Positions 39,241-56,610 of a stretch of 64,000 nt of DNA are shown here, one piece after another. Source of the DNA: an uncultured Clostridia bacterium. Lineage in GTDB: Bacteria > Bacillota > Clostridia > TANB77 > CAG-508. The DNA is taken from positions 1,568,053 through 1,632,052 of the forward strand of contig OZ006973.1 in NCBI GenBank assembly GCA_963931085.1, written 5' to 3'. The notes beneath the pieces are model-generated. The model was not told the origin of the DNA and did not search any database. It saw only the letters and a program-made list of their open reading frames with translations. Positions within the stretch are counted from its first letter, which is position 1. Each line of letters starts with the position of its first letter. The translations under genes were made by a program, and so were the position numbers.

Positions 39241-42200
39241 TTATCTTTCGTCTCCTGATTGTCTTCTATACTCTCTTCTTGATTTAGGAAGATCTCTAGT
39301 TCCTTCATCATCAAAAGTATATTCTCTCGTTTGTCTTTTATTTCTTTTTTTGTCTGTATTTGTCTTTCTTGCATTTTCAGCAACATCTAAAGCTGTATCA
39401 GCAATAATAGCTCCTTTTAAAATATCTCCAATCACTTCTGTACTCCTTTCCACAGTAGGATTTATTACAGTTTCATTTACAGTTTTTACTGTATCTACAG
39501 TCTTTGATACAGTTTCATAATGACCTTCAACGTCAACTACTGTTTTTATAATATCATCTACTTTAACTCTTTCAGTTATTCCTGGGACTAAATCAGAAAG
39601 TTTAGTCCAGAATCTATCACCAACTGCAACATATAGATTACTTAATGTATCTACATCTACTGTTCCATCATTTACATCATTTACCAACTCATCTACTGTT
39701 ATATTTTGTCTTAATACTCCAGAATCTAGCATATCTGCTGCGAAAGTACCATCTGTTAATGTTGGAGCCCTTAGTCCGGCAGTATCAGATAATCCATGTC
39801 CTCCGCTTCCAACTGAATTAAATATCGCAGTAATTTTTTCATCTCCAGATAAAGTATAAACTTCTGGCAATCTTTCTCCTCCATATACTGAATAAAATCC
39901 TGTAACCTGCTTTCCACTGTTTGAAGCCATAAGTTCATCAAGTGTTCTCGACTTATTGATAACATCATCATATACTGGCATAGTCTCTGTTTTATATGTT
40001 GTAGGTACCCATTCTTCTGTTGTTATAGTTTCAGTAGATGGAACTTCAACTTGTCTTGTTATTTTATTATGTTCTAAAATCCAATCATGAATTTTAGGTC
40101 CAATATATTTTACAGCTAATCCTTTTGCAAAACCTTTAATTACAGTAGTTCTTAATGTATTTACTTCTTTACTTGCAATAGCATGTTGCTTGTCATCTAC
40201 TGCATCTGTTTGCTCTGAAGCAATAGGACCATTATTTACTAAAGAATTTAAATTATCTCTTGCATTTTGCAAACTATTTCTTTTAGAAGTAATTGCATTT
40301 TCTACATCTATTCTATTTGAAGCTCCTGGATTTCTCCTTAAAGAATCTTCTAGTCTTCTTATCTGTATTTCAAATTCTCTTATCTGAGTATTTAATGCAT
40401 TTATTAATACTGCGTTTCTCTCTTGAGAAATAATATTTTGCTTAATATCTGCAGCTCCTGCTCTTAAGACAGCTTCATTTCCTTCTTTAGCTCTAAATAA
40501 AGCTTTAAATCTTGCTTCTATTGCATTTCTAAATGGATGTCTTACAGGATTTACACTTGCAGGATTAGGAGATGATGCTCTTAATCTTTCTGTTTCATCT
40601 TCGTCTCTTTGCCTTGCAATATCAGCAAAATAATCTCTTCTAGCTACCATTCTATGATAAACATTATTTTTATATGGAGAAGCATCTCTTCCTCTTGTAA
40701 TTAATCTATGTAACGGTTGAGCAACATTTCTTCCTATAAATCTGTATACTGGTGCAAAAACGTTTCTTACAAATATTCCGGCATTTAATACTACTCTTCC
40801 AGCATTTCTTAGTAGTCCTGTTTGTCTTGGGATATATGGCATAGTTTCACCATACTTCCCAAGTGTTGCTAAATCACTTTGCGTATATTCGTGTTGATTA
40901 AATGTATGATTTCTAGTTTCTATATATTCTTTATCATTATCATATGTATGACTTGTTCCATTATATACAGATGTATCTCCTGCATCAAATCTTGTCATTC
41001 TTTCAAGTGCAGATTTATATCCATCTAAAAGTAAGAATTTTTCATCATCTTCTCTTTCAGGATAATCTCTAATTGTTCTATATGTTATTCCACCACTTGT
41101 AGTATCAATCTCATTTGATTTAAATCTTTCAGATCTTTCTAGATACTCTCTTTCATAATCTTTATCTCCATAGAATTTAGCAAGCATATCATCTCTTCTT
41201 CTTAGATATTCGTTTTCAATTCTATCATTATCTAAAGTATAAGTTAAACTAGGATCAGATGGTATATCTATTTCTTGAGCTGTAAAATCAAATCTTTTTG
41301 AAGAAGCTCTATTTATTGCATCTTGAAGTACGGCTCTATCATAATCATCTCTTTCTACATTCTCTAAGTTTTGTGTAAATACTTCTTCGTGCCTAATAAA
41401 ATTATTTTGCCCTAAAAGCATCCATCTAAAATCATCTCGTGATGATGTAGCACGACCTTTTTTAGCATCCCATGTTAAATCAGTATTGTACCATTTTCCA
41501 TTACCATGCTCATCTTTTATTTCGACTTGATTCCATGCATGACCTGTATTATCATTTCCTGTTTCACAATTTCCTGTTACAAGTCTTGATCTTATTCCTA
41601 CTAAAGAAAGAGCATTTCTTAAAATATCAGCATATCCTGCACAAACAGTTTTTCCCTCTATAATACCTTCTTTAAGATTTCTGCACTCATTTATTCTTCT
41701 AGAATAATATAAAGCACTTGTTTTATCATCATGTCTTATTGCATCATGGTCATAAGAAATTGAATCTGCAAGTCTAGTATAAATAGTCGTAAATTTATCT
41801 AAATCTGAATCAGCTGGATTAATTCCTCTTACAACCCTATCTAATGTATCTCTAATATATATATACTCTGCTTGTGAATATGAATCTATTTGATAACTCC
41901 AATTATCAAAATTATCATCTAAAATTTGTACTCCAGAAATATTCATTCCCACATTATTCATTCTTCTTGACAAATCTCTAAGAGTAACACTATCTAGTTC
42001 TGATACATCTTTAATTTTTACTCTTACATCCTGCGGAATGACTTTTCCCGAATTTAATAAATGTTCTATCTGAGGAATTGTAAGTAATAAATTAGCATCT
42101 TGAAGATAAGATCTTGTAAAATCTGTAGAATCAATTTCTGATTCATTTTCAATCATTATTGGATTTTCTTTAATTTTTAAGTTACCTCTTATAATCTCTG

Positions 42201-44106
42201 CATCTTTTATATAATATGGAGCTTTATTCATAGACCACATTAATCTATCAACAGCATCATCTTTTGTAGTTGTATTTCTATCACCCTTAGCTATTCCTGA
42301 ATCAAAATAAATTTTCTTTAAAAACTCAAAAGATTCATCAGAAATGTCTGGTGCATTTATTATTTGGTTTCTTATTCCAGTATTATTATTTAGATAATAT
42401 ATTAAATATGGATTAGTTCTATAAAAATTCTCTACTCTTTCTATATCATTAACACCTAAATCATTACTCATTAAATTAAGTAATCCAAGTCTTCCATCAA
42501 AGTTTTCTAATCCATCTATATCATTTACTTGTGAATTAGTAATATTCACCATTACAAGATTAGAATTTACAGAAAGTTCTCTTAATATTTTTCTATCATG
42601 TAAATGCTGACCATTTATCGTAATATCATGTAATGTACATGATGGATAAATAGTACTCATAAACTGATTAAATTCACTATCAGAAATACTATTTATTTCT
42701 AAAATTGGAATAGAATCTAATCCACTAACAGAAGAGATATTTTCTGTTCTTCCACCTCTTAATATAATCTTTCTTAAAGCAGGTAATCTCTCTACATCTA
42801 CATTTATTAAGTTTATTCCTTCAAAAGAAATAGCTTCAATATTATCTGATAACTTAGTACCAAAGTTTGGTATTTGAATAGCTGAACTTGGATCTGTATT
42901 TCTAAATGCTATTGTTTGATATTCTTTTTTACCATCTATTCTATAATTATTATTTGATATTTTTGGTACTTTTGATAAATCAATATCAAAATCTTCTGCT
43001 ATATTACTTGAAATAGTTAAAGTTATTGGATAATATCTTGCATACTCGCTATTTGATTGAACTTCATAAATTTTATCTACTACTTCTTGTAAATCAACAT
43101 GACTTCCTGTTTCATTAGAAATATCTATTTTACTTAATATTTCAGGATAATATGTAGCAATTTCTTCTAACTCTATTTTTAAATCATCATAACTAGTATC
43201 AGTAACATTAATTTTAAGTTCTGGTAATTCTTTTTTTAGAGTCTCCTCTGTAATTTCATTTCCTTCAAAAATTCCAGAAAGCTCTTTACTCTTTATCTCA
43301 ACTTTTTTTCTTTCTTCAGGAACAGGTGGGATAATTTCATCTTCCTTATTTACTTTATTTTCCTCATTATTTTGTCTATCTATATATGAAAGGACACTAT
43401 CTATTGCTTTATTTATCTCTTCCCTAGGTAAAAATCTATCTGAAGATGTCTCTACCATATCTGTTTTATGTTCTGGCATATAATAAAACTCTGGATTAGA
43501 TAAGAAATTCATAAATACAGGAGTTTCATTAATATTATTATTAAAAAACTCATCCGAATCCTTTGCCAAATCTAAAGGATAGTATATATTTCCTATCTGA
43601 ATTTCATTCCATGCATCAAAATTACTATTATAAATATATTTACATGGAATTCCATTTCTTCTCATTGCTTCATAAAAAATAGAAGCAAGACCTGCAGAAT
43701 CTGTTTTATTACCAATAAGAGCAGATAAATCATATGATGCTTTATTTTTCTCTAAATCACTTCGTGGAATTTGCTGAAACATTTTATAGAAATATATAGC
43801 TTTTTCTATATTGCTCCACTCAGGATTCATTCTTCTTTCAATTTCATTAAATTCATTTATTAAATCAATAAATGCTTCTTTTGTATATGTTAATAATTTT
43901 CTTCCTGATGATTTTTCGTACTCTTGAATATCGTTATCAGGATTAATTCTTATAATACAGTCATCACTTAATTCTCTTATTAAATTTATATTTTGATTTT
44001 TAGTAGAGCTAAATTCTACTATTACTGGTGCTATACTATTAATTTCTTTTATATCTTCTACTCTGATATTTCCTTTAATACGGATTAATTTCATTTTCTT
44101 CTCCAT
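39241..44106 (-). CDS. Giant orphan protein A (1621 aa). It has a degenerate transglutaminase-like domain, leucine-rich repeats, an intact transglutaminase-like Cys-His-Asp core, and a long C-terminal region with amphipathic segments and a charged tail.
   Basis: The core reads GKTVCAGYADILRNALSLVGIRSRLVTG...GHAWNQ...WYNTDLTWD. Codon positions are Cys 41641-41643, His 41539-41541 and Asp 41479-41481. The LRR block covers about aa 425-575 (42382-42834). There is no signal peptide. The likelier start is the ATG at 44094, where GGAG lies 6 nt upstream. Confidence 0.8.
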   Translation of the reverse strand: MEKKMKLIRIKGNIRVEDIKEINSIAPVIVEFSSTKNQNINLIRELSDDCIIRINPDNDIQEYEKSSGRKLLTYTKEAFIDLINEFNEIERRMNPEWSNIEKAIYFYKMFQQIPRSDLEKNKASYDLSALIGNKTDSAGLASIFYEAMRRNGIPCKYIYNSNFDAWNEIQIGNIYYPLDLAKDSDEFFNNNINETPVFMNFLSNPEFYYMPEHKTDMVETSSDRFLPREEINKAIDSVLSYIDRQNNEENKVNKEDEIIPPVPEERKKVEIKSKELSGIFEGNEITEETLKKELPELKINVTDTSYDDLKIELEEIATYYPEILSKIDISNETGSHVDLQEVVDKIYEVQSNSEYARYYPITLTISSNIAEDFDIDLSKVPKISNNNYRIDGKKEYQTIAFRNTDPSSAIQIPNFGTKLSDNIEAISFEGINLINVDVERLPALRKIILRGGRTENISSVSGLDSIPILEINSISDSEFNQFMSTIYPSCTLHDITINGQHLHDRKILRELSVNSNLVMVNITNSQVNDIDGLENFDGRLGLLNLMSNDLGVNDIERVENFYRTNPYLIYYLNNNTGIRNQIINAPDISDESFEFLKKIYFDSGIAKGDRNTTTKDDAVDRLMWSMNKAPYYIKDAEIIRGNLKIKENPIMIENESEIDSTDFTRSYLQDANLLLTIPQIEHLLNSGKVIPQDVRVKIKDVSELDSVTLRDLSRRMNNVGMNISGVQILDDNFDNWSYQIDSYSQAEYIYIRDTLDRVVRGINPADSDLDKFTTIYTRLADSISYDHDAIRHDDKTSALYYSRRINECRNLKEGIIEGKTVCAGYADILRNALSLVGIRSRLVTGNCETGNDNTGHAWNQVEIKDEHGNGKWYNTDLTWDAKKGRATSSRDDFRWMLLGQNNFIRHEEVFTQNLENVERDDYDRAVLQDAINRASSKRFDFTAQEIDIPSDPSLTYTLDNDRIENEYLRRRDDMLAKFYGDKDYEREYLERSERFKSNEIDTTSGGITYRTIRDYPEREDDEKFLLLDGYKSALERMTRFDAGDTSVYNGTSHTYDNDKEYIETRNHTFNQHEYTQSDLATLGKYGETMPYIPRQTGLLRNAGRVVLNAGIFVRNVFAPVYRFIGRNVAQPLHRLITRGRDASPYKNNVYHRMVARRDYFADIARQRDEDETERLRASSPNPASVNPVRHPFRNAIEARFKALFRAKEGNEAVLRAGAADIKQNIISQERNAVLINALNTQIREFEIQIRRLEDSLRRNPGASNRIDVENAITSKRNSLQNARDNLNSLVNNGPIASEQTDAVDDKQHAIASKEVNTLRTTVIKGFAKGLAVKYIGPKIHDWILEHNKITRQVEVPSTETITTEEWVPTTYKTETMPVYDDVINKSRTLDELMASNSGKQVTGFYSVYGGERLPEVYTLSGDEKITAIFNSVGSGGHGLSDTAGLRAPTLTDGTFAADMLDSGVLRQNITVDELVNDVNDGTVDVDTLSNLYVAVGDRFWTKLSDLVPGITERVKVDDIIKTVVDVEGHYETVSKTVDTVKTVNETVINPTVERSTEVIGDILKGAIIADTALDVAENARKTNTDKKRNKRQTREYTFDDEGTRDLPKSRREYRRQSGDER

Positions 44107-49496: not shown

Positions 49497-49525
49497 ATTT
49501 TATCATCTTTGTTTTTTAAAGTCAA
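49497..49525 (-). promoter_or_regulatory. Sigma-A promoter of the str operon
   Basis: The minus strand reads TTGACT (49520-49525), a 17-nt spacer, then TGaTAAAAT (hexamer 49497-49502). The -35 overlaps the stop codon of the upstream small ORF. Confidence 0.55.
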
Positions 49526-49797
49526 CATTTGTGCAAAAATAATTTAGCTATTTTATCAATTTTTTTGATTTTAATATTATTTGCAATTATCAATAATACA
49601 TCTTTTTTTATTTCATCTGATATATCATTATTTATGTACAGTTCATCATTTTCTATTTTATATTCTACAACATCACCTGTAATTGGCTTTTCCGTAGTAG
49701 ATAAAAAGAAATATTTTTTATTTTTATATAGTACATTATCCATAATCATATACTTTTTTCCATCATAAACAATTTCATCACCAATAAAAAAATCCAT
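49522..49797 (-). CDS. Small acidic/aromatic protein, paralog 3 of a three-member family (DUF1292-like pattern)
   Basis: 91 aa with the core VYDGKKYMIMDNVLYKNKKYFFL. It aligns with the ORFs at 50270..50566 and 50668..50982. Confidence 0.55.
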   Translation of the reverse strand: MDFFIGDEIVYDGKKYMIMDNVLYKNKKYFFLSTTEKPITGDVVEYKIENDELYINNDISDEIKKDVLLIIANNIKIKKIDKIAKLFLHKC

Positions 49798-49798
49798 T

Positions 49799-50215
49799 CT
49801 ATCTAGTCTCCCTTTCTTGGTTACTAATAACTTTATTTTCAGCCTCTTTTGCTAAACTTTCATATTCTTCCATGTCTATTTTTCTTTCTTCTAATCTAGC
49901 CTTTGTATCATCCCAAAAGTGTTTAGCAAACTCTGAATTATATCCTGCTTGATATGCTCCATATCCCAGAGCAGATAACGTAGCAATAATTAAAGCTTTT
50001 TTAAAACCATTAAATGACTCTTGTTTTTTCTTTGAACGATTCTCTTTTGTATATGTCGCCCTTCTCCAGTCAGATTGATTTTTATTTGTACCTACTGAGG
50101 TTATAAAAGGTTTTTCTAATTCTCTAAAATCACTACTGCTCATGTCTATTGAATCTAAAAATTTTTCAAAATCTTTATCAAATGATCCTTCATCTAATCC
50201 TGTTTTTCTTTCCAT
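49799..50215 (-). CDS. Hypothetical single-pass membrane protein
   Basis: 138 aa with a central TM (ALIIATLSALGYGAYQAGY) and charged flanks. Its stop abuts the start of the downstream small ORF. Confidence 0.5.
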   Translation of the reverse strand: MERKTGLDEGSFDKDFEKFLDSIDMSSSDFRELEKPFITSVGTNKNQSDWRRATYTKENRSKKKQESFNGFKKALIIATLSALGYGAYQAGYNSEFAKHFWDDTKARLEERKIDMEEYESLAKEAENKVISNQERETR

Positions 50216-50269: not shown

Positions 50270-50566
50270 TTAAACATTTGCTTTAGCAATTTTTCTATTT
50301 ATTTTATCAATTGCTATATTGCACAATTCTCCAAAGATTTTTTCATCTGTAACTTTATCAAAATATCTATCATAAACCTTATATATGAATTCAGTAGTAG
50401 AGAAACTATATTTAATATCATTTAAATTATAATTCTTATCTTCCATTTCTGACTTATTAACGATGAAATAATATTTTCTTCCTTTATATTGAAGACAATC
50501 AATTATACAAAATTCCTTTCCTTCATATGTAGTTTCAGCAAATCTTTTATCCCCTGAATTTACCAT
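50270..50566 (-). CDS. Small protein, paralog 2 (DUF1292-like pattern)
   Basis: 98 aa with the core TYEGKEFCIIDCLQYKGRKYYFIV ... EFIYKVYDRYFDKVTDEKIFGEL. Confidence 0.55.
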   Translation of the reverse strand: MVNSGDKRFAETTYEGKEFCIIDCLQYKGRKYYFIVNKSEMEDKNYNLNDIKYSFSTTEFIYKVYDRYFDKVTDEKIFGELCNIAIDKINRKIAKANV

Positions 50567-50667: not shown

Positions 50668-50982
50668 TTATTTTTTCAAATTATCATATAAGCCTTTAAA
50701 ATATTTATTTTCTTGTAAAAATATTCTTTTAGTAGCTTCTTTTGACAATTCTTTATATAATTGATCATCATCTACTGTTTGATAATACTTATCTTCAACT
50801 TCATATATGAAATTAACTTCAACTTCTTTATTACCATAATCTTCAATATTATCTTTTCCTTCTTCATAAATATCTTCCATTATGTAATAATATTTTTTTC
50901 CTTTATATTCAAAGAAGTCTATTATAAAATACTCTTTTTCTCCATATTTTATTTTTACAAAATTACTATTTTTAAATTCCAT
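50668..50982 (-). CDS. Small protein, paralog 1 (DUF1292-like pattern), translationally close-coupled to giant B
   Basis: 104 aa with the core KYGEKEYFIIDFFEYKGKKYYYIM ... NFIYEVEDKYYQTVDDDQLYKEL. AAGGAG lies 8 nt before the ATG, within the 17 nt after the giant-B stop. Confidence 0.6.
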   Translation of the reverse strand: MEFKNSNFVKIKYGEKEYFIIDFFEYKGKKYYYIMEDIYEEGKDNIEDYGNKEVEVNFIYEVEDKYYQTVDDDQLYKELSKEATKRIFLQENKYFKGLYDNLKK

Positions 50983-50999: not shown

Positions 51000-53900
51000 T
51001 TATCTATCTTCTCCTTGATCACGATCTTGATCATTATTCTCTTGGTTGTCACGTTCTTGATCATTGTCTCTTTGTTCTTCTTGTCCTCTTGAAGCATTTT
51101 CTCTTCTTCTAATATCTTCACCAAAAGCAGCATTTCCCATTGTTGCTCCTAATACTACTGCTGCTGGGATAACTGAAGAATCTATTGCAATATTGAAGTC
51201 ACCAATATGACTAGCTGATTGAATTGTTCCAGAAACTGTTGGAACTGTAATTGATTGTGCTGCATTTTGTAATAAGTTATTTAAGTTACCTCTTTGAGCT
51301 AGTGCTTCTCTAGTTACATCTACCATAGATTGATATGTTGATGAATATTGTGATCCACTATTTATAGCTTGTTGTAATACTCCCATTTGATATTGCATAC
51401 TACTTACAATTTCTGGTTCAATTGTATTTTGATTAAATTGTAATATAGTATTTATAGCACCTTGGAAGTTACCAGCTTGTGCTAAAGCATCTGCTTGTTG
51501 TACTGCTGATAAATATTGAGAATTCATTTGTTCAACCATTTGGTGAACTTGAGCATCCTTTGCGAAATCCCATGCTCCACCAGCTACTTGGTTAGCAGAT
51601 ACTGTAAATGAATCATGATATCTAGCTAAAAGTCCTTGTATATTTCCATCTGTAACTGTCTTAAACGCTTCGTATGTACCCTGATCTGGAGTAGCAGTTT
51701 GACTATATGATTTTATTTGATTTAGTGCATTTTGATAGTCTTGCTCTACTTGTAAATTATTTTGATTTACCTGGTCTAGATGAGTATTATGAGCTGCATG
51801 TTCTTGGTCTAATCTAAGTTGTTCAGATGCAATTTTATTATTTTGTATCATTGCATTAGCAAAGTTAACTACTGCTGCAGTTAATGCTACATTTGCCATA
51901 ATTTGACGAGATCTTGTATCATCTCTATCAGAAGGAATAACAGTTGTTTTTTCACGTTGTGCTTTTCCTCTTGTAATTACTATTGGACCGAAATGTTTAG
52001 TTTCAGTATTTTTTTCAAGTGATTGAACCATTTCAAATTCTTGGTCTCTTGCTGTTTGTTCATCTCCTCTTCCTCTCGCTTCTCTAACCATATCATGTCT
52101 TTCTGCCATTTCTTCAATTAAATCTCTGTTATCTGGATTTGTTTTTGCAAATAATTTGAAGAAAGGAAATGTTGGTCCATAATTATCTCTATTTCTACTT
52201 TTATTAAACATAGCTCTTTCAACAGCTTTATATTGTTCTACTACTTTTCTTTCTGTTAAAGATTCAGCAGAAATATCTCTACTAGAATAAGCATTTCTTT
52301 CTTGTCTCATTGCTTGGTAATTAGCAATCATTCGATCTAATTGTTCTCTTGTAAATACGCCTGCATTAATTAAATCATTTTCCATTCCCTCGATTTCTGC
52401 TATTGTTGCCCTATCACAGTATGTCTTATCACTCAATAATAATTTAGCATCTTCTGCATTAAATTGTCTTCCATTTACTTGAACTCTATTTCCAACTGTA
52501 TTTGCTACTGCTTCTCTAGCCTCTGTCATTCTTTGATCTATTTCTTCTGCTTTTTGTTGATTTACCGCTCTATAGTTATCAGAGAATTCAACTCTATCTG
52601 AAGTCTCTTCCCCTAAAACTTCCATAACAGCTTGCATGTATAAATCGTTTAATTTATATTGTCTTGCTGTACTTTCATGAACTAATCCATACATATTCTG
52701 TCCATTTGGTCCAGGCTCACCATTTAATAATACATTCCATTCATCTGGATGGTTATCACGTAAGTCTCTTAAATTAGCACACATTTCTTGGAATTGATTT
52801 TCTGTTTTTTTATTTCCGATTGCATTAATTGCTTTAGCTCCTAATTTTACTGGAAGCATTACAGCAGTAACAGGTAATCCAAGCCATCCAATACCTCCAT
52901 CCTTTATAGATGTTGGTCCCAATTTTGCATGAGCTAAGTTTCTAAGTGTAATTGCTCTAGATGTTGCTTGAGGTCCATCATAAGATGTATCAGCTACAAT
53001 TCTCCAGAATCCTCTAGTTGTCAAATCATGTTTATGTCCATCATCGTCATCATCGTGTCCATGTCCATCATCGTCATCATCATGTCCATGTCCGTCATCG
53101 TCATCATCATGTCCATGTCCATCATCGTCATCATCATGTCCATGTCCATCATCGTCATCATCGTGTCCATGTCCATCATCGTCATCATCGTGTCCATGTC
53201 CATCATCGTCATCATCATGTCCATGTCCATCATCGTCATCATCATGTCCATGTCCGTCATCGTCATCATCGTGTCCATGTCCATCATCGTCATCATCATG
53301 TCCATGTCCATCATCATCATGTGTACGGTCAACAGGAACTCTTTCTGTTACTCTTTCTCTAGTTAATGATTCTAACTCGGAAATTATATTGTTTAACTGT
53401 TCTAATCTTCTACGCTCTGCATCTGTTAAAGGAGCACGATTTTGATTCCCCTCTAATTGTTGTCTTTCTTCTTCTAATCTAGCAATTTGTTCTCTTATTG
53501 AATTTAATCTATCTTGTAATGTATTTACATCTTCATTTACAGTAACATTTTGAGGTGACTCATTTAATAAATCAATTGCAGCTGAATAGCTACTTTCACT
53601 TCTTCTTAATTCTTCTAATTGCCTATCTATTTCTTCTCTTCTTTGAGCCTCTCTATCTTGAGTATTATCTCCTCTTTGATTAATTTCTCTTAATCCTTCT
53701 CTTAATTCTTGGAATTCATCTATTTCATTATCATCTAATTGATTTTGAATTGCATGTTCATCTTCATTTTCTATTCCTTCTAATTCTGGAACTACTCTAC
53801 CTAAAACTTGTGCCATCATTATTCTTAATTCTGCTTTTCTTGCAGGAGTAGTTGAATCATTATTAAATTCTTCTCTTAATTCTTGGAATCTATCAATTTC

Positions 53901-56531
53901 GTTATCATCTAATTGATTTTGAATTGCATGCTCGTCTTCGTTTTCTATTCCATCTAATTCTGGAACTTCTCTACCTAAAATTTGTGACATCCTGTATCTT
54001 ATTGCTTGTGCTCTTATTCTATCTTCTGGAGATAATTCAGGAGAATCATTCGTATTTTCTCCGTTTGCTCTGGCTAGAAGTGCATCTCTTTCTGCTCTAT
54101 ACTCTTCTAACCTTCTATCTACTTCTGAAGCTTCTACATATGGTCTTTCATCAGATGTTCTACTTAATAAATCTCTAAGTTCTGGTAAAACATCATTTGC
54201 TCTTTGAATATCTGCTTCTGATACCTGTTCTGTCTCTCTTTCTGTTGTAATTGTGTATTGATATGTAGACATTAACATAGTTAAACGTCTCTTTGTATCA
54301 TCTGATACATTTTCTAAGCTATTTATATATTCAGCTTCTTGTTCTGGAGTACGAGTAATATCTGCATTTATTAGATTGTCTCTTTCTCTTGTTAAAGTAT
54401 CAATTTCAGCTTGCATTCCATCAAGTTCCGCTCTTTCTTCCTCTGTAAGTTCAGGTTGATTTCTTGTAACTCTTACAAGTCTTATTGGAGTAACAACTCC
54501 ATCATCCATTCCTTCAGCTCCATCTCTTACTTCAACATCATAATTATTAATATTTTCATTAATCTCTTCTTCAGACATATTCATTTCTTGTCTTAATATA
54601 GCTCTTACTAAATCTTGTCCTTGTAGTCTTCCATTTCCATATGTCTCAATATAAAGATTATCCATTCCTTCAACAGGTTCTCTTGTCTCTGTTTCTCTTG
54701 ATCCTGGTTCAATTGTTCTCGTTCTAACTACTATACTTCTTGAAAGAGGTCCATCATCATATAAACCATTTGCGTCTTCTACAGTCTCCATAGAATATTC
54801 ATTTATTGTTCTATCTATTTCTTCGTCTGATATTCCATTTTGTCTTAACACTGTTCTTATAAAATCTTCATCTGATATTCTAGGAAAATTATTTATATCT
54901 AAATCAGTTTGGACTTCTTCTCTAATAGTTCTAGGTGACGTTTCTATTTCATTTCTTCTTGCTTCTAAAGCATTTCTTCTCTCTTCAATTAAATTATCTA
55001 ATTCTCTAGTTCTATTATTTACTATTTCTTGGTATTGTCTTGAATTTTGAAGATCTAACAAACGAGTTCTTTCATCTGTAGATAAATCACTTCTAGATAA
55101 TTCTTGATTAATTCTATCTTGGTCATATGATAAATCTTCTGGTAAGTTAGAATTACTATTAGCTTCTCTTTCAGCTCTTTGTCTATTTATCTCTTGATAT
55201 CTTCTAGCATCTTCTCTACTTATTGTAGTAAGTACTGGTTCTCTTCTAGTTTGATTTGCTAAAACACCTTCATAATAATTAATTCTATCTTGAATAGTTT
55301 GTCTTGTAACAACTTCAATTTCTCTATTCTCATATTCTTGTTCAGTTTCTTGAGAAGAATCACCTGTAGTACCTTCTGCTGATGTATCTGTAGCTTCTTG
55401 TTCTGGTTCTTCTGCTTGTCTTCTTTCTTCTTCTCTTTCTTCTTCAACTTGTCTATCAACATCTTTTGATAAACCTTGAATTAATCTGTTTACAACAGCT
55501 TTATCTTCATCTGATAATTCATCAAGTCCAAGCATATTTTGAAGTCTAACAAGCATTAATCTTTTATCTCTTATTGTTCCAGAATATGCTCTAAAGTTTC
55601 CATCTCTATCATATCTAAATCCAACTGTTGAACTAAGCATTGATTGAAGATCTGTTTCTTGTACTCTTGAAACTAGAACACCTGCTCTTACACCAAAATT
55701 ATCAGTTCTTCTTTTTTCTTCAGGAGATGTTGTTCTATCTACTTCTCCTATCTCTTGAATTCTTCTATGTAAATCAGCATAATTTTCATATCTAACTTCG
55801 CCTTCACTTGCTGTTAATTCTTCTCTTACTCTATCATTTTCAGTTCTATCATTTGTAGCTATATCTCTTGCAATATCGTTTCTCATTCTTGGTAAAAATG
55901 ATTCTACATAAGTTCTTACTTCTGGAGTTAATCTATCTGTTTGCAATAAATCATTTATTCTATTAGCAATTACTGTTCTATTACGTACAGATCCTGTAAC
56001 ACTTACTCTTCCTTCTTCGTCCATTACGAAGTTTACAGGTCTATTTGTTAAAGGATATTCATATGTTCCATTATTATTATCTATACCATTTTCTCTATTC
56101 CCAGATCTTTCTGCCATTTCAGATAAATTAGTAACTAATTCATCATATTCTCTATTTGCAGTCTCTTGAACTCTTTCTGCCCTTGAAACAGCTTCATCTA
56201 ATGATCTAAGTAATGTGTCTATTGTATCATCTATTCTATTATCTTCATCTGTTCTTTCTTCAGTACTTGTTCTTCTTCTATCTCTTAAATCTCTTAAAGA
56301 TCTTGCTAAATCTCTTTTACCATTAGTTGGTCCTAATGCTGTAATTTGATTATCTGCTCCCACTTTAAATTTTACTTCTCTTGGGAAAGTGCTTCTATAA
56401 GAAGTAGCTTCAATTTTTGTAACTGAATTGTTTAAACTTCTTCTTATTTCTCCTATGTCACTTGCTCTTCCTACTGTTGATATATAACCTCTAACTGCTG
56501 CTAATAATCTTTCATCGGAAATATTTGCCAT
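51000..56531 (-). CDS. Giant orphan protein B (1843 aa). It has an Arg/Glu/Asp-rich repetitive N-terminal 1070 aa, a DDDDDGHGH tandem array, hydrophobic segments, a Gln/Asn/Ala-rich helical C-region and an acidic tail.
   Basis: This is a long uninterrupted ORF. AGGAGG lies 8-9 nt before the ATG at 56531, and a strong promoter lies upstream. There is no signal peptide. Internal repeats are described in the findings. Confidence 0.8.
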   Translation of the reverse strand: MANISDERLLAAVRGYISTVGRASDIGEIRRSLNNSVTKIEATSYRSTFPREVKFKVGADNQITALGPTNGKRDLARSLRDLRDRRRTSTEERTDEDNRIDDTIDTLLRSLDEAVSRAERVQETANREYDELVTNLSEMAERSGNRENGIDNNNGTYEYPLTNRPVNFVMDEEGRVSVTGSVRNRTVIANRINDLLQTDRLTPEVRTYVESFLPRMRNDIARDIATNDRTENDRVREELTASEGEVRYENYADLHRRIQEIGEVDRTTSPEEKRRTDNFGVRAGVLVSRVQETDLQSMLSSTVGFRYDRDGNFRAYSGTIRDKRLMLVRLQNMLGLDELSDEDKAVVNRLIQGLSKDVDRQVEEEREEERRQAEEPEQEATDTSAEGTTGDSSQETEQEYENREIEVVTRQTIQDRINYYEGVLANQTRREPVLTTISREDARRYQEINRQRAEREANSNSNLPEDLSYDQDRINQELSRSDLSTDERTRLLDLQNSRQYQEIVNNRTRELDNLIEERRNALEARRNEIETSPRTIREEVQTDLDINNFPRISDEDFIRTVLRQNGISDEEIDRTINEYSMETVEDANGLYDDGPLSRSIVVRTRTIEPGSRETETREPVEGMDNLYIETYGNGRLQGQDLVRAILRQEMNMSEEEINENINNYDVEVRDGAEGMDDGVVTPIRLVRVTRNQPELTEEERAELDGMQAEIDTLTRERDNLINADITRTPEQEAEYINSLENVSDDTKRRLTMLMSTYQYTITTERETEQVSEADIQRANDVLPELRDLLSRTSDERPYVEASEVDRRLEEYRAERDALLARANGENTNDSPELSPEDRIRAQAIRYRMSQILGREVPELDGIENEDEHAIQNQLDDNEIDRFQELREEFNNDSTTPARKAELRIMMAQVLGRVVPELEGIENEDEHAIQNQLDDNEIDEFQELREGLREINQRGDNTQDREAQRREEIDRQLEELRRSESSYSAAIDLLNESPQNVTVNEDVNTLQDRLNSIREQIARLEEERQQLEGNQNRAPLTDAERRRLEQLNNIISELESLTRERVTERVPVDRTHDDDGHGHDDDDDGHGHDDDDDGHGHDDDDDGHGHDDDDDGHGHDDDDDGHGHDDDDDGHGHDDDDDGHGHDDDDDGHGHDDDDDGHGHDDDDDGHKHDLTTRGFWRIVADTSYDGPQATSRAITLRNLAHAKLGPTSIKDGGIGWLGLPVTAVMLPVKLGAKAINAIGNKKTENQFQEMCANLRDLRDNHPDEWNVLLNGEPGPNGQNMYGLVHESTARQYKLNDLYMQAVMEVLGEETSDRVEFSDNYRAVNQQKAEEIDQRMTEAREAVANTVGNRVQVNGRQFNAEDAKLLLSDKTYCDRATIAEIEGMENDLINAGVFTREQLDRMIANYQAMRQERNAYSSRDISAESLTERKVVEQYKAVERAMFNKSRNRDNYGPTFPFFKLFAKTNPDNRDLIEEMAERHDMVREARGRGDEQTARDQEFEMVQSLEKNTETKHFGPIVITRGKAQREKTTVIPSDRDDTRSRQIMANVALTAAVVNFANAMIQNNKIASEQLRLDQEHAAHNTHLDQVNQNNLQVEQDYQNALNQIKSYSQTATPDQGTYEAFKTVTDGNIQGLLARYHDSFTVSANQVAGGAWDFAKDAQVHQMVEQMNSQYLSAVQQADALAQAGNFQGAINTILQFNQNTIEPEIVSSMQYQMGVLQQAINSGSQYSSTYQSMVDVTREALAQRGNLNNLLQNAAQSITVPTVSGTIQSASHIGDFNIAIDSSVIPAAVVLGATMGNAAFGEDIRRRENASRGQEEQRDNDQERDNQENNDQDRDQGEDR
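53034..53321 (-). repeat. In-frame 27-bp tandem repeat, 10 full units plus truncated ends, encoding (DDDDDGHGH)n
   Basis: Units start at 53040 and recur every 27 bp to 53309. The copies differ only at CAC/CAT and GAT/GAC third positions. Confidence 0.95.
53697..53989 (-). repeat. Tandem duplication with a 174-bp period inside giant B. About 119 bp of each copy is highly similar.
   Basis: Copy 1 is 53697-53815 and copy 2 is 53871-53989. They encode VPELEGIENEDEHAIQNQLDDNEIDEFQELRE and VPELDGIENEDEHAIQNQLDDNEIDRFQELRE. Confidence 0.85.
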
Positions 56532-56567
56532 ATTTCTTTTTCCTCCTCACAATAAATCACTAACTCC

Positions 56568-56610
56568 ATTATACCAATATTGCAACATTTTTTCAATATT
56601 TATGTAAACT
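56568..56610 (-). promoter_or_regulatory. Strong sigma-A-type promoter with an upstream TTTACATAAA dyad (giant-B operon)
   Basis: The minus strand reads AGTTTACATAAATATTGAAA, a 17-nt spacer, then TGgTATAAT. The -35 is at 56591-56596 and the -10 at 56568-56573. Confidence 0.65.

Follow-up and report, generated by a model that had tools for sequence, protein, structure and literature searches.

The 27-bp in-frame tandem array found in the window (the whole 64-kb stretch of DNA analysed here) differs in copy number between otherwise identical genes, and it occupies a slot of the host protein that is kept in position across most of the protein family while the peptide filling it is not. With moderate confidence, the array is read here as a variable-number tandem repeat (VNTR) that fills this recurrent linker slot with a hyper-acidic, His/Gly-rich spacer, acting as a flexible tether rather than as a dedicated metal-binding device. 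Judging from its composition, the encoded spacer is probably disordered.

The array and its host gene

The ORF harbouring the array (Table 1) codes for a protein whose N-terminal region is charged and helical and whose C-terminal module, likewise helical, is conserved; it also contains two low-complexity linkers. Of the protein's residues, 1.8% are Lys and 10.1% Arg; avoidance of lysine is striking in the window's clade of the host protein family. Orthologs have other sequences in place of linker 1: L005 carries (TPATP)n, L004 (VEPT)n and P0010 Q/G/E repeats. A candidate promoter upstream of the ORF, proposed on its consensus match alone, agrees at 11 of 12 positions. The gene is syntenic in uncultured gut Clostridia, with a fixed position between trmFO and the str operon (rpsL). 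Its neighbours are trmFO, small orphan ORFs, rpsL, rpsG, fusA, tuf, a gene for a transglutaminase-core protein and plsX, and the DUF1292-like gene is a conserved downstream neighbour in orthologous loci. Genes for metal-enzyme maturation or metal transport were not found in this neighbourhood, and scanning of the window with Rfam and a tRNA search returned nothing. The 1843-aa protein matched no Pfam family at E <= 0.1, models of His-rich Ca-binding repeats included, and no NCBIfam, PHROGs or PADLOC entry; neither a signal peptide nor a recognisable secretion or anchoring domain was found in it.

Table 1 Features of the host gene and the array in the window
Feature	Position	Strand	Remarks
Promoter-like site, best of the region	56568..56596	minus	TTGAAA, 17-nt spacer, TG-extended TATAAT; upstream of the ORF
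Putative ribosome-binding site of the 1843-aa ORF	56542-56548	minus	GAGGAGG
ORF carrying the array, 1843 aa	51000..56531	minus	orphan giant protein
Linker 1, aa 362-401	55329..55448	minus	E/R/Q/T-rich, low-complexity
N-side bracket of the linker slot, aa 1041-1056	53364..53411	minus	RRLEQLNNIISELESL; motif L.NII.ELE.L
Asp/His array, aa 1071-1168	53028..53321	minus	27-bp in-frame tandem units; codon-by-codon reading
Array lead, HDDDGHGH	53321-53298	minus	codon-by-codon reading
Array units 1-9, DDDDDGHGH	53297-53055	minus	codon-by-codon reading
Array unit 10, DDDDDGHKH	53054-53028	minus	codon-by-codon reading
C-side bracket of the linker slot, RGFWRIV, aa 1173-1179	52995..53015	minus	opens the conserved C-terminal module
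First moderately hydrophobic segment, aa 1214-1232	52836..52892	minus	IGWLGLPVTAVMLPVKLGA; Kyte-Doolittle mean 1.47
Second moderately hydrophobic segment, aa 1544-1562	51846..51902	minus	Kyte-Doolittle mean 1.66
Third moderately hydrophobic segment, aa 1781-1799	51135..51191	minus	Kyte-Doolittle mean 1.62
DUF1292-like gene, 104 aa	50668..50982	minus	immediately downstream of the 1843-aa ORF

Tandem Repeats Finder identified 53025-53320 as by far the strongest tandem array in the window (27-bp period, 11.0 copies, 95% matches, no indels, score 529). Its units stand head to tail, are a multiple of 3 bp in length and show high identity to each other. Among the ten units only two synonymous C/T sites vary, apart from GGA->AAA in the last one. 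For His9, coding units 1, 4, 5 and 9 use CAC and the others CAT; for Asp5, coding units 2 and 8 use GAC and the others GAT. The sole non-synonymous change, Gly8->Lys, involves two nucleotides of the promoter-distal unit 10. The codon table and Tandem Repeats Finder bear out the earlier note, which had described a genuine coding repeat of ten units differing at synonymous sites, with Gly-to-Lys as the only non-synonymous variant. In that note the units were counted on the plus strand from 53040, whereas the gene lies on the minus strand; after conversion its list of variants (units 1, 5, 6 and 9; units 3 and 9) is exact. Three additional ORFs across the array (52968-53366 and 53018-53362 on the plus strand, 53021-53332 on the minus strand) were rejected as artefacts, which arise because the 27-bp unit is devoid of stop codons in those frames.

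The slot between both flanking motifs comprises 117 residues, among which 55 Asp, 23 His and 21 Gly, and the stretch of 105 aa that was scanned ahead of the C-side motif has a net charge of -51. A search of 5.8 billion proteins with the array peptide (99 residues) alone retrieved one unrelated secreted protein, with GDDDDGYGH repeats; on this search, the D5GHGH unit is essentially without precedent among proteins. The array had been placed immediately N-terminal to the first hydrophobic segment, but 45 residues separate the two. This first segment contains a Lys that is conserved in the family. Hydrophobic segments across the family likewise have conserved Lys, and their Kyte-Doolittle means are 0.7-1.7; a clearly hydrophobic stretch (2.27) was found only in the divergent C-terminus of P0009. 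The location of the array at a membrane surface, as suggested in the earlier note, is conjectural.

Copy number and unit haplotypes among alleles

Variation in copy number, which the earlier note had proposed to look for, was found among the assembled alleles of close genomes and ranges from 2 to 12 units. The ten units of the window are replaced by six in P0001, P0002, P0006, P0007 and P0008, by seven in P0004 and by twelve in P0003; P0005 has two, a count from a MEGAHIT k87 contig, and copy numbers from short-read assemblies such as this one are unreliable. P0001 and P0002 are each identical to the window protein at all 1742 flanking residues compared. In 5,229 bp of coding DNA flanking the array, a 6-unit allele on a Canu long-read contig matches the window without a single mismatch; identity over the surrounding 11.4 kb is 99.94%. 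Gain and loss of units is the fastest change at the locus, because 6 and 10 units occur with identical flanking DNA.

The two C/T sites define three unit haplotypes, A, B and C, which recur reshuffled in other strains. They are also present in L007, the N-terminal region of which is ~13% different from that of the window (136 of 1067 residues). Units follow each other as ABCAACCBA+K in the window and as ABCBA+K in L006, a difference of a single clean 108-bp (4-unit) indel. The six synonymous differences among the window's units reduce to two old C/T polymorphisms in three shared haplotypes, and therefore represent two mutational events rather than six. The chance that both of two events are synonymous is P = 0.026 when all substitutions are taken as equal and 0.11 when only transitions are considered, and the GGA->AAA change in unit 10 adds two non-synonymous nucleotides to the tally of the array.

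Non-synonymous changes in other alleles (D->G, H->R, G->K) are located in edge units. The array of P0009 is homogenised to H-D5-G-K-G (DDDDDGKGH), with other codons and one His per unit. The earlier interpretation, that the DNA had diverged under selection on the peptide and that recent slippage was not involved, is contradicted by the shared haplotypes and by the 6-unit allele; its inference of peptide selection is further countered by the D->G and H->R changes, by the homogenisation in P0009 and by unrelated repeats in orthologs. D5GHGH is kept in the interior units of window-lineage alleles despite the ~13% difference in N-terminal residues. Weak selection on Asp/His content may act in the window's species cluster, concerted evolution being the alternative. 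Divergence between strains amounts to ~13% in the N-terminal half versus ~1% in the C-terminal module. Mosaic alleles exist as well: L009 matches the window over the first ~470 aa and then diverges.

The linker slot across the protein family

An HMM search of 1.84 billion representatives found 34 relatives only, forming an orphan family with lengths of 620-1868 aa. A GFWRIV-type motif directly follows the slot in every relative with a C-terminal module. L.NII.ELE.L brackets the slot on its N side in roughly one third of the family representatives examined; P0010, L005, P0018, P0022 and P0024 have this motif, as does the window protein. Where both motifs occur, the slot measures 45-137 aa. Syntenic, diverged orthologs carry (DDDEK)13 (P0010), (DDDKDK)n (L009), (ETP/ETS)n (L005) or (xEPT)n of ~100 aa (L004) at this same position, and (GGGTQTPEGL)n, (GKDPK)n and Lys/Pro-rich sequence are other fillings in the family. 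Roughly half of the relatives with the C-side motif have a tandem repeat at most 110 aa upstream of it, with a different unit in each. The filling of the slot thus differs in every lineage, its position being kept and its sequence not. Outside the window's lineage the slot contains 0-5 His. Across the family, net charge in the scanned 105 aa ahead of the C-side motif varies from -54 to +11, and the slot is net basic in P0024 and P0035. The slot of all five close lineages is strongly acidic, its net charge lying between -12 and -57, and therefore charge may matter.

The presence of unrelated repeats at the same slot in relatives argues that the array is a local filling of a linker slot and not a dedicated metal device. 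Whole units would be added or removed by slippage in replication or by unequal recombination between near-identical units, and such gain or loss would always preserve the reading frame. The same process would homogenise the interior units (concerted evolution), while edge units would gather substitutions. What the protein would need is a hydrophilic, flexible tether of loosely fixed length that joins its N-terminal coiled-coil-like region to the C-terminal module; this tether need not be the D5GHGH peptide in particular. In these respects the array resembles in-frame coding VNTRs and low-complexity linkers of bacteria and fungi (e.g. Pro/Thr-rich linkers), which consist of head-to-tail units with a length that is a multiple of 3 bp, vary in copy number between near-identical strains and have homogenised interiors and degenerate edges. 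Coding VNTR linkers also keep their position but not their sequence, as is the case for the array slot with its PT/EPT-type linkers in orthologs. M. tuberculosis leuA contains a 57-bp coding VNTR (PMC2704214), and in Epa1 of the yeast Candida glabrata a tandem-repeat spacer is reported to set display height (PMC7199969). Unlike these known systems, the array has an essentially unprecedented unit and is hosted by an uncharacterised family.

Structural comparison was carried out with the C-terminal module, both AF2 runs covering sequence without the array. An alignment of 3 sequences resulted in an unusable model (pLDDT 51.6), and one of 28 sequences in a pLDDT of 74.3. Foldseek searches with this module against PDB and BFVD yielded nothing below E = 0.1. 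The top matches were ClyA-family alpha-pore-forming toxins (SmhB, AhlB, YaxA/XaxA), which share long helical bundles and moderately hydrophobic helical segments with the module; they are non-significant (E >= 0.39, TM <= 0.28) and serve as a lead only. ClyA-type toxins and tape-measure proteins were rejected as evidence, being generic helical matches. In PDB sequence searches, neither protein half nor the family profile retrieved more than coiled-coil noise on N-terminal overhang columns, to which the matches with CFAP46, EnvC-like proteins and YukC belong.

Alternative readings and significance

A likeness of the array to acidic Ca-binding and His-rich metal-binding proteins had been proposed earlier. 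As far as composition goes this holds, since the array resembles low-affinity Ca-binding and His-rich metal-binding sequences, but the His residues are not conserved in orthologs. Metal binding by the array in vitro is likely from its sequence; it would be near-certain for such a composition, and its detection would therefore not show function. By the comparison of relatives, metal binding is not a conserved function of the slot. SlyD, Hpn and ZnuA bind Ni or Zn through their His/Asp-rich tails; like the array, which is itself probably disordered, the C-terminal tail of SlyD, Hpn, the tails of UreE and HypB and the ZnuA loop are GH/DH-rich, disordered and of low complexity, and they chelate Ni/Zn. 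These proteins are tied to genes for metallo-enzyme maturation or metal uptake, whereas the host gene has no Ni/Zn enzyme or transporter genes among its neighbours and its His segment is not conserved in orthologs. To our knowledge, their His-rich segments never form long perfect tandem arrays with copy-number polymorphism, unlike the array. It is unlikely that the array is a lineage-specific, high-capacity, low-affinity binder or buffer of divalent cations (Zn/Ni via GHGH, Ca/Mg via Asp5) with a capacity tuned by copy number. The Asp and His content and charge of the slot given above would suit this role, as would the retention of D5GHGH by interior units in all window-lineage alleles. The histidine-rich Ca-binding protein (HRC) of the sarcoplasmic reticulum, which has low-affinity, high-capacity Ca binding presumed to occur via its acidic repeats, forms a parallel, as this capacity has been attributed to repeats alternating a His-rich motif with a poly-acidic run (PMC6171002). 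The HRC repeats, however, are 29 aa long and combine HRHRGH with 10-11 acidic residues; the protein itself is eukaryotic and luminal and has a signal peptide, and no sequence homology between it and the 1843-aa protein was detected (Pfam E <= 0.1, NCBIfam). Against the cation binder speak also the slots without any His in P0010, L009, L004 and L005, the scarcity of His elsewhere outside the window's lineage, the net basic slots of P0024 and P0035, the halved His content per unit in P0009, the lack of metal-related genes near trmFO, the str operon and plsX, and the absence of Pfam matches. Co-option of the slot in the window's lineage as a copy-number-tunable, metal- or pH-responsive element that switches N-terminal/C-terminal geometry, in an undescribed, lysine-avoiding giant structural protein, is a long shot; if true, chelation of Zn/Ni/Ca or a shift in net charge would come from ~55 Asp and 20-25 His, the pKa of which is near 6.

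Only slightly less of a long shot is a contingency-type hypervariable region of an exposed protein, in which a change in copy number would alter the reach or the antigenicity under pressure from host, phage or immune system. PT/EPT-type linkers, as carried by orthologs, are typical of extracellular proteins. Copy-number differences between otherwise identical genes, the greater divergence of the N-terminal half, mosaic alleles such as L009 and the tandem-repeat spacer of Epa1 all point the same way. The host protein, however, lacks a signal peptide and a secretion or anchoring domain and is encoded by a fixed syntenic core gene beside the ribosomal str operon, and the unit length, being a multiple of 3, allows no on/off switching by frameshift. 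Hardly credible is an assembly artefact, by collapse or expansion, as the origin of the array or of its length. It is true that the breaks in short-read metagenome-assembled genomes (MAGs) coincide with the array (L001 stops at aa 1076, L002 and L003 begin at aa 1128 and aa 1160), that the arrays of L010 and L009 contain an N gap and a frameshift, respectively, and that the sample accession of the 2-unit P0005 is near that of a 6-unit Canu assembly. Yet no allele lacks the array, which stays in frame with the conserved 1843-aa ORF. Seven contigs, four of which exceed 1 Mb, carry the 6-unit form, and three contigs of up to 1.805 Mb carry the 10-unit form. Canu contigs are among them, and one clean indel separates the two forms in an otherwise identical unit order. 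The apparent split of the L009 gene at its array (1074 aa + 650 aa) was rejected, as it reflects a frameshift within (DDDKDK)n, where its sister L010 has the N gap.

Read as a variable-length linker, the array by itself is of little weight: another coding VNTR filling a linker. Short-read assemblies break, collapse or frameshift at such an array, and some MAG annotations therefore split the gene (L009) or truncate it (L001-L003). The host family is the more interesting object, an orphan group of 34 representatives among 1.84 billion with no match in Pfam, PDB or Foldseek searches. Its non-homologous linker fillings constitute a natural linker-swap series for what the slot needs, be it length, charge or flexibility.

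The tandem array and its copy-number alleles

The array reported in the earlier note was recovered by Tandem Repeats Finder at 53025-53320 (27-bp period, 11.0 copies, 95% matches, 0 indels, score 529) and lies within the ORF of a 1843-aa giant protein; it is an in-frame VNTR. The ten full units vary in two nucleotide columns only, both synonymous, apart from an additional Gly to Lys replacement (GGA to AAA) in the final unit. His9 is encoded by CAC in coding units 1, 4, 5 and 9 and by CAT in the others, and Asp5 by GAC in units 2 and 8 and by GAT in the others. The variant units listed in that note were exact once coding units are renumbered on the plus strand. Three further ORFs overlap the array merely because its unit lacks a stop codon in those frames.

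Coordinates of the array, the giant protein and neighbouring features
Feature	Position	Strand	Description
Giant-protein ORF	51000-56531	-	1843 aa
Array	53028-53321	-	aa 1071-1168 of the giant protein
Array lead HDDDGHGH	53321-53298	-	codon-by-codon reading
Nine DDDDDGHGH units and final DDDDDGHKH unit	53297-53028	-	codon-by-codon reading
GIENEDEHAIQNQLDDNEID(R/E)FQELRE, twice	53697-53777, 53871-53951	-	N-terminal region; DNA copies 89% identical
~42-aa module …EEI(D/N)…N(E/N)Y…DG…(V/L)VR(T/V)TR, twice	54459-54584, 54714-54839	-	
C-terminal tail	51003-51110	-	acidic, repetitive, ends ...DQGEDR; includes TRF match 51019-51076
Small orphan ORF before rpsL	50668-50982	-	weakly DUF1292-like (E = 0.009)
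Small orphan ORF before rpsL	50270-50566	-	
Small orphan ORF before rpsL	49799-50215	-	
Small orphan ORF before rpsL	49522-49797	-	
Orphan upstream of trmFO	58293-60833	-	846 aa; no family match
Transglutaminase-core protein	39241-44106	-	1621 aa; sole recognisable domain at aa 759-876

The comparison of copy number across strains proposed in the earlier note was carried out, and flank-identical proteins were found to carry 10 (window), 6 (P0001), 6 (P0002) and 2 (P0005) units. In these homologues all aligned flanking residues are identical to the window protein (1742 residues for P0001, one N-terminal-region residue fewer for P0002 and P0005). The locus encoding P0001 (L006) is 99.94% identical to the window across 11.4 kb, and the sole difference in the gene is one clean 108-bp, 4-unit indel. 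Very recent slippage had been argued against; the gain or loss of units is nevertheless recent, as the 6- and 10-unit alleles show 0 mismatches in 3,201 + 2,028 bp of flanking coding DNA. Gain and loss of whole units in the array outpaces the accumulation of point substitutions elsewhere in the gene. The 6-unit allele is carried by 7 contigs, of which 4 exceed 1 Mb and some are Canu 'tig' records, and the 10-unit allele by 3 contigs, the longest of 1.805 Mb. Because both alleles reside on large contigs, this polymorphism is probably real. The 2-unit allele of P0005 comes from a MEGAHIT k87 contig (L008) and is likely an assembly collapse.

Short-read MAG contigs L001, L002 and L003 start or end within the array, L010 has an N gap in it (L010 7821-7940), and the two-gene split of L009 (1074-aa and 650-aa ORFs) is due to a frameshift in the array (L009 7870-7890). 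Repeat arrays of this gene family show breaks, gaps and frameshifts in public MAGs (L001-L003, L009, L010, L012 5106-5942), and gene calls are therefore truncated or split.

Unit haplotypes and candidate mosaic alleles

The synonymous differences between window units had been taken as a sign of selection on the peptide. However, the six differences amount to 2 polymorphic sites and 3 unit haplotypes, A (Asp5 GAT, His9 CAC), B (Asp5 GAC, His9 CAT) and C (Asp5 GAT, His9 CAT). Since 13 of the 81 possible substitutions in a DDDDDGHGH unit (9 of 27 transitions) are synonymous, two out of two events are synonymous by chance with P = 0.026 to 0.11 (all substitutions versus transitions only). The unit order is A B C A A C C B A + K in the window allele, A B C B A + K in the Canu contig L006 and A + K in L008. 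L007, encoding P0003, reads variant, B, C, B', A, C, B, A, C, C, B + K, and upstream of its array ~13% of N-terminal-region residues differ from those of the window. Old unit variants have been duplicated, deleted and reshuffled among alleles, with no independent origins.

Furthermore, the Gly to Lys change comprises two non-synonymous nucleotides within the window array, and the arrays of P0003, P0004 and P0008 harbour GHGR variants together with GDDDD, DDGDD and GDGDD, respectively, mostly in edge units. Array interiors are homogenised and edges degenerate. In P0009 the homogenised unit is CAC GAT GAT GAT GAC GAT GGT AAA GGT (H-D5-G-K-G), with one His and Gly codons different from those of the window. 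Such a pattern is characteristic of a tandem array under concerted evolution, in which a variant that spreads becomes the unit. The argument for peptide selection thus fails on the number of sites, on the other alleles and on the replaced P0009 unit.

Between strains, aa 1-1067 are about 11-13% divergent (122-139/1067 residues) and the C-terminal module (aa 1169-1843) ~1%. L009 4780-8004 hardly differs from the window over its first ~470 aa and diverges from there on. This uneven divergence and the L009 pattern suggest mosaic alleles and recombination. P0009 (L015 1208-6499) is 87% identical to the window in its N-terminal region, but its C-terminal region is a different one of far greater hydrophobicity (Kyte-Doolittle mean 2.27 at aa 1242). 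The GFWRIV motif is missing from it, and the small ORF that comes next is not the usual one, an arrangement that suggests a module swap at the array or close to it.

The linker slot and the metal-binding hypothesis

The array fills a linker slot just upstream of a conserved motif, (R/K)GFWR(I/L)V, that opens the C-terminal module; the stretch preceding this motif is lineage-specific. Other lineages fill the slot with unrelated low-complexity sequence: (DDDEK)13 in P0010 (45% identical), (DDDKDK)n in L009, (ETPETS/ETP)n in L005 (37% identical) and (xEPT)n of about 100 aa in L004 (45% identical, rabbit MAG). A search of the C-terminal-module profile against 1.84 billion representative proteins (E < 1e-3) yielded only 34 relatives, 620-1240 aa long, in which a charged helical N-terminus is followed by a low-complexity stretch, a conserved motif (RGFWRIV, PRHWVEIMAETQTQS, LPIRSFWEIYN or ISFFEVVAKT) and a helical module. 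Slot repeats in these relatives include (GGGTQTPEGL)n, (DGKDP)n, (EPDEI/V)n, (EPVP)n, (DKFQPPAVVEK)n, (GKDPK)n, (TPAPT)n, (DGKTP)n, (EEKSE)n, (RNPNPGSTERDGEG)n and (GEPGP)n, and a Lys/Pro-rich basic stretch was also found.

The 105 aa upstream of the motif contain 23-25 His in the window lineage, against 10 in P0009 and 0-5 in the other relatives, and net charges range from -54 to +11. Slot length is 45-137 aa where the N-side motif L.NII.ELE.L is present too. Because repeats, His, charge and length vary among relatives, what is conserved is a spacer of hydrophilic, low-complexity sequence that in many cases is tandemly repeated. His is not conserved, length is not fixed and acidity is not conserved outside close relatives. 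Linker 1 (aa 362-401) behaves in the same way.

Coding VNTRs and low-complexity linkers of many bacterial and fungal proteins work in the same way as the array, which shares with them all defining features tested. Units would be gained and lost by replication slippage or unequal recombination, and the encoded segment would be disordered, acting as a flexible tether between N-terminal region and C-terminal module. This combined reading of an in-frame VNTR as a linker is considered fairly likely. The earlier note had proposed metal binding, which is possible as a lineage-specific addition. As the reason for the slot it is opposed by the orthologues, which do not conserve array composition, and by the housekeeping-gene neighbourhood; metal binding in vitro would not establish function, because composition alone predicts binding. 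Membership of the HRC (histidine-rich Ca-binding protein of sarcoplasmic reticulum) or metallochaperone families was rejected, as there is no sequence match and no supporting gene context, and His is not conserved. The array peptide alone gave one match among 5.8 billion proteins, an unrelated secreted protein with GDDDDGYGH repeats; the DDDDDGHGH unit is nearly unique.

The giant host protein and its locus

Synteny around the giant gene is shared by every relative examined, in the order ~500-880-aa orphan, trmFO, giant gene, ~92-105-aa DUF1292-like ORF, rpsL, rpsG, fusA and tuf, followed in longer loci by plsX. In every related locus, distant ones included, the DUF1292-like ORF is conserved directly downstream of the giant gene. 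Upstream of the giant ORF lie a promoter-like site of the extended -10 type, close to consensus, and a putative GAGGAGG ribosome-binding site. The transglutaminase-core protein, partly lysine-depleted (K 5.6%, R 7.2%), is kept downstream of tuf in related loci. Orthologues of the orphan upstream of trmFO have tandem repeats of their own, (TPETP)n in L005 2785-4530 and (ETKEP)n in L012 2055-3572, and its N-terminus has a 'DGxYSIGGNAT...' type motif in common with repeats of the giant protein.

No match to the giant protein was found in Pfam, NCBIfam, PHROGs, PADLOC or the PDB sequence library, and no signal peptide is evident in its sequence. An AF2 model of the C-terminal 675 aa (28-sequence alignment; pLDDT 74.3, pTM 0.53) is all-helical plus one beta hairpin. 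Foldseek searches of PDB and BFVD with this model gave no match at E < 0.1; ClyA-type pore-forming toxins and tape-measure proteins ranked highest and were dismissed as generic long-helix likeness. Three hydrophobic segments, possibly transmembrane (Kyte-Doolittle mean 1.5-1.7 in the window protein, 0.7-1.7 family-wide) have a conserved Lys within. The array had been placed immediately before the first of these; the gap is 45 residues. The GIENEDEHAIQNQLDDNEID-type sequence and the ~42-aa module are both duplicated within the N-terminal region. The GIENEDEHAIQNQLDDNEID-type duplication occurs in 2-4 copies in relatives, many of which also end in an acidic stretch whose terminus resembles D(D/E)G(E)R and may be a conserved C-terminal signal.

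The giant protein strongly avoids lysine (K 1.8%, R 10.1%), whereas most proteins encoded nearby have K 10-16% and R 2-4%, and GC3 is the same in its gene and the neighbours (about 0.10; window 26.7% GC). This avoidance is common to P0003, P0009, P0010 and L004 and absent in the most distant L005 (K 9.7%). More unusual than the array itself are its orphan host family and the lysine avoidance seen there.
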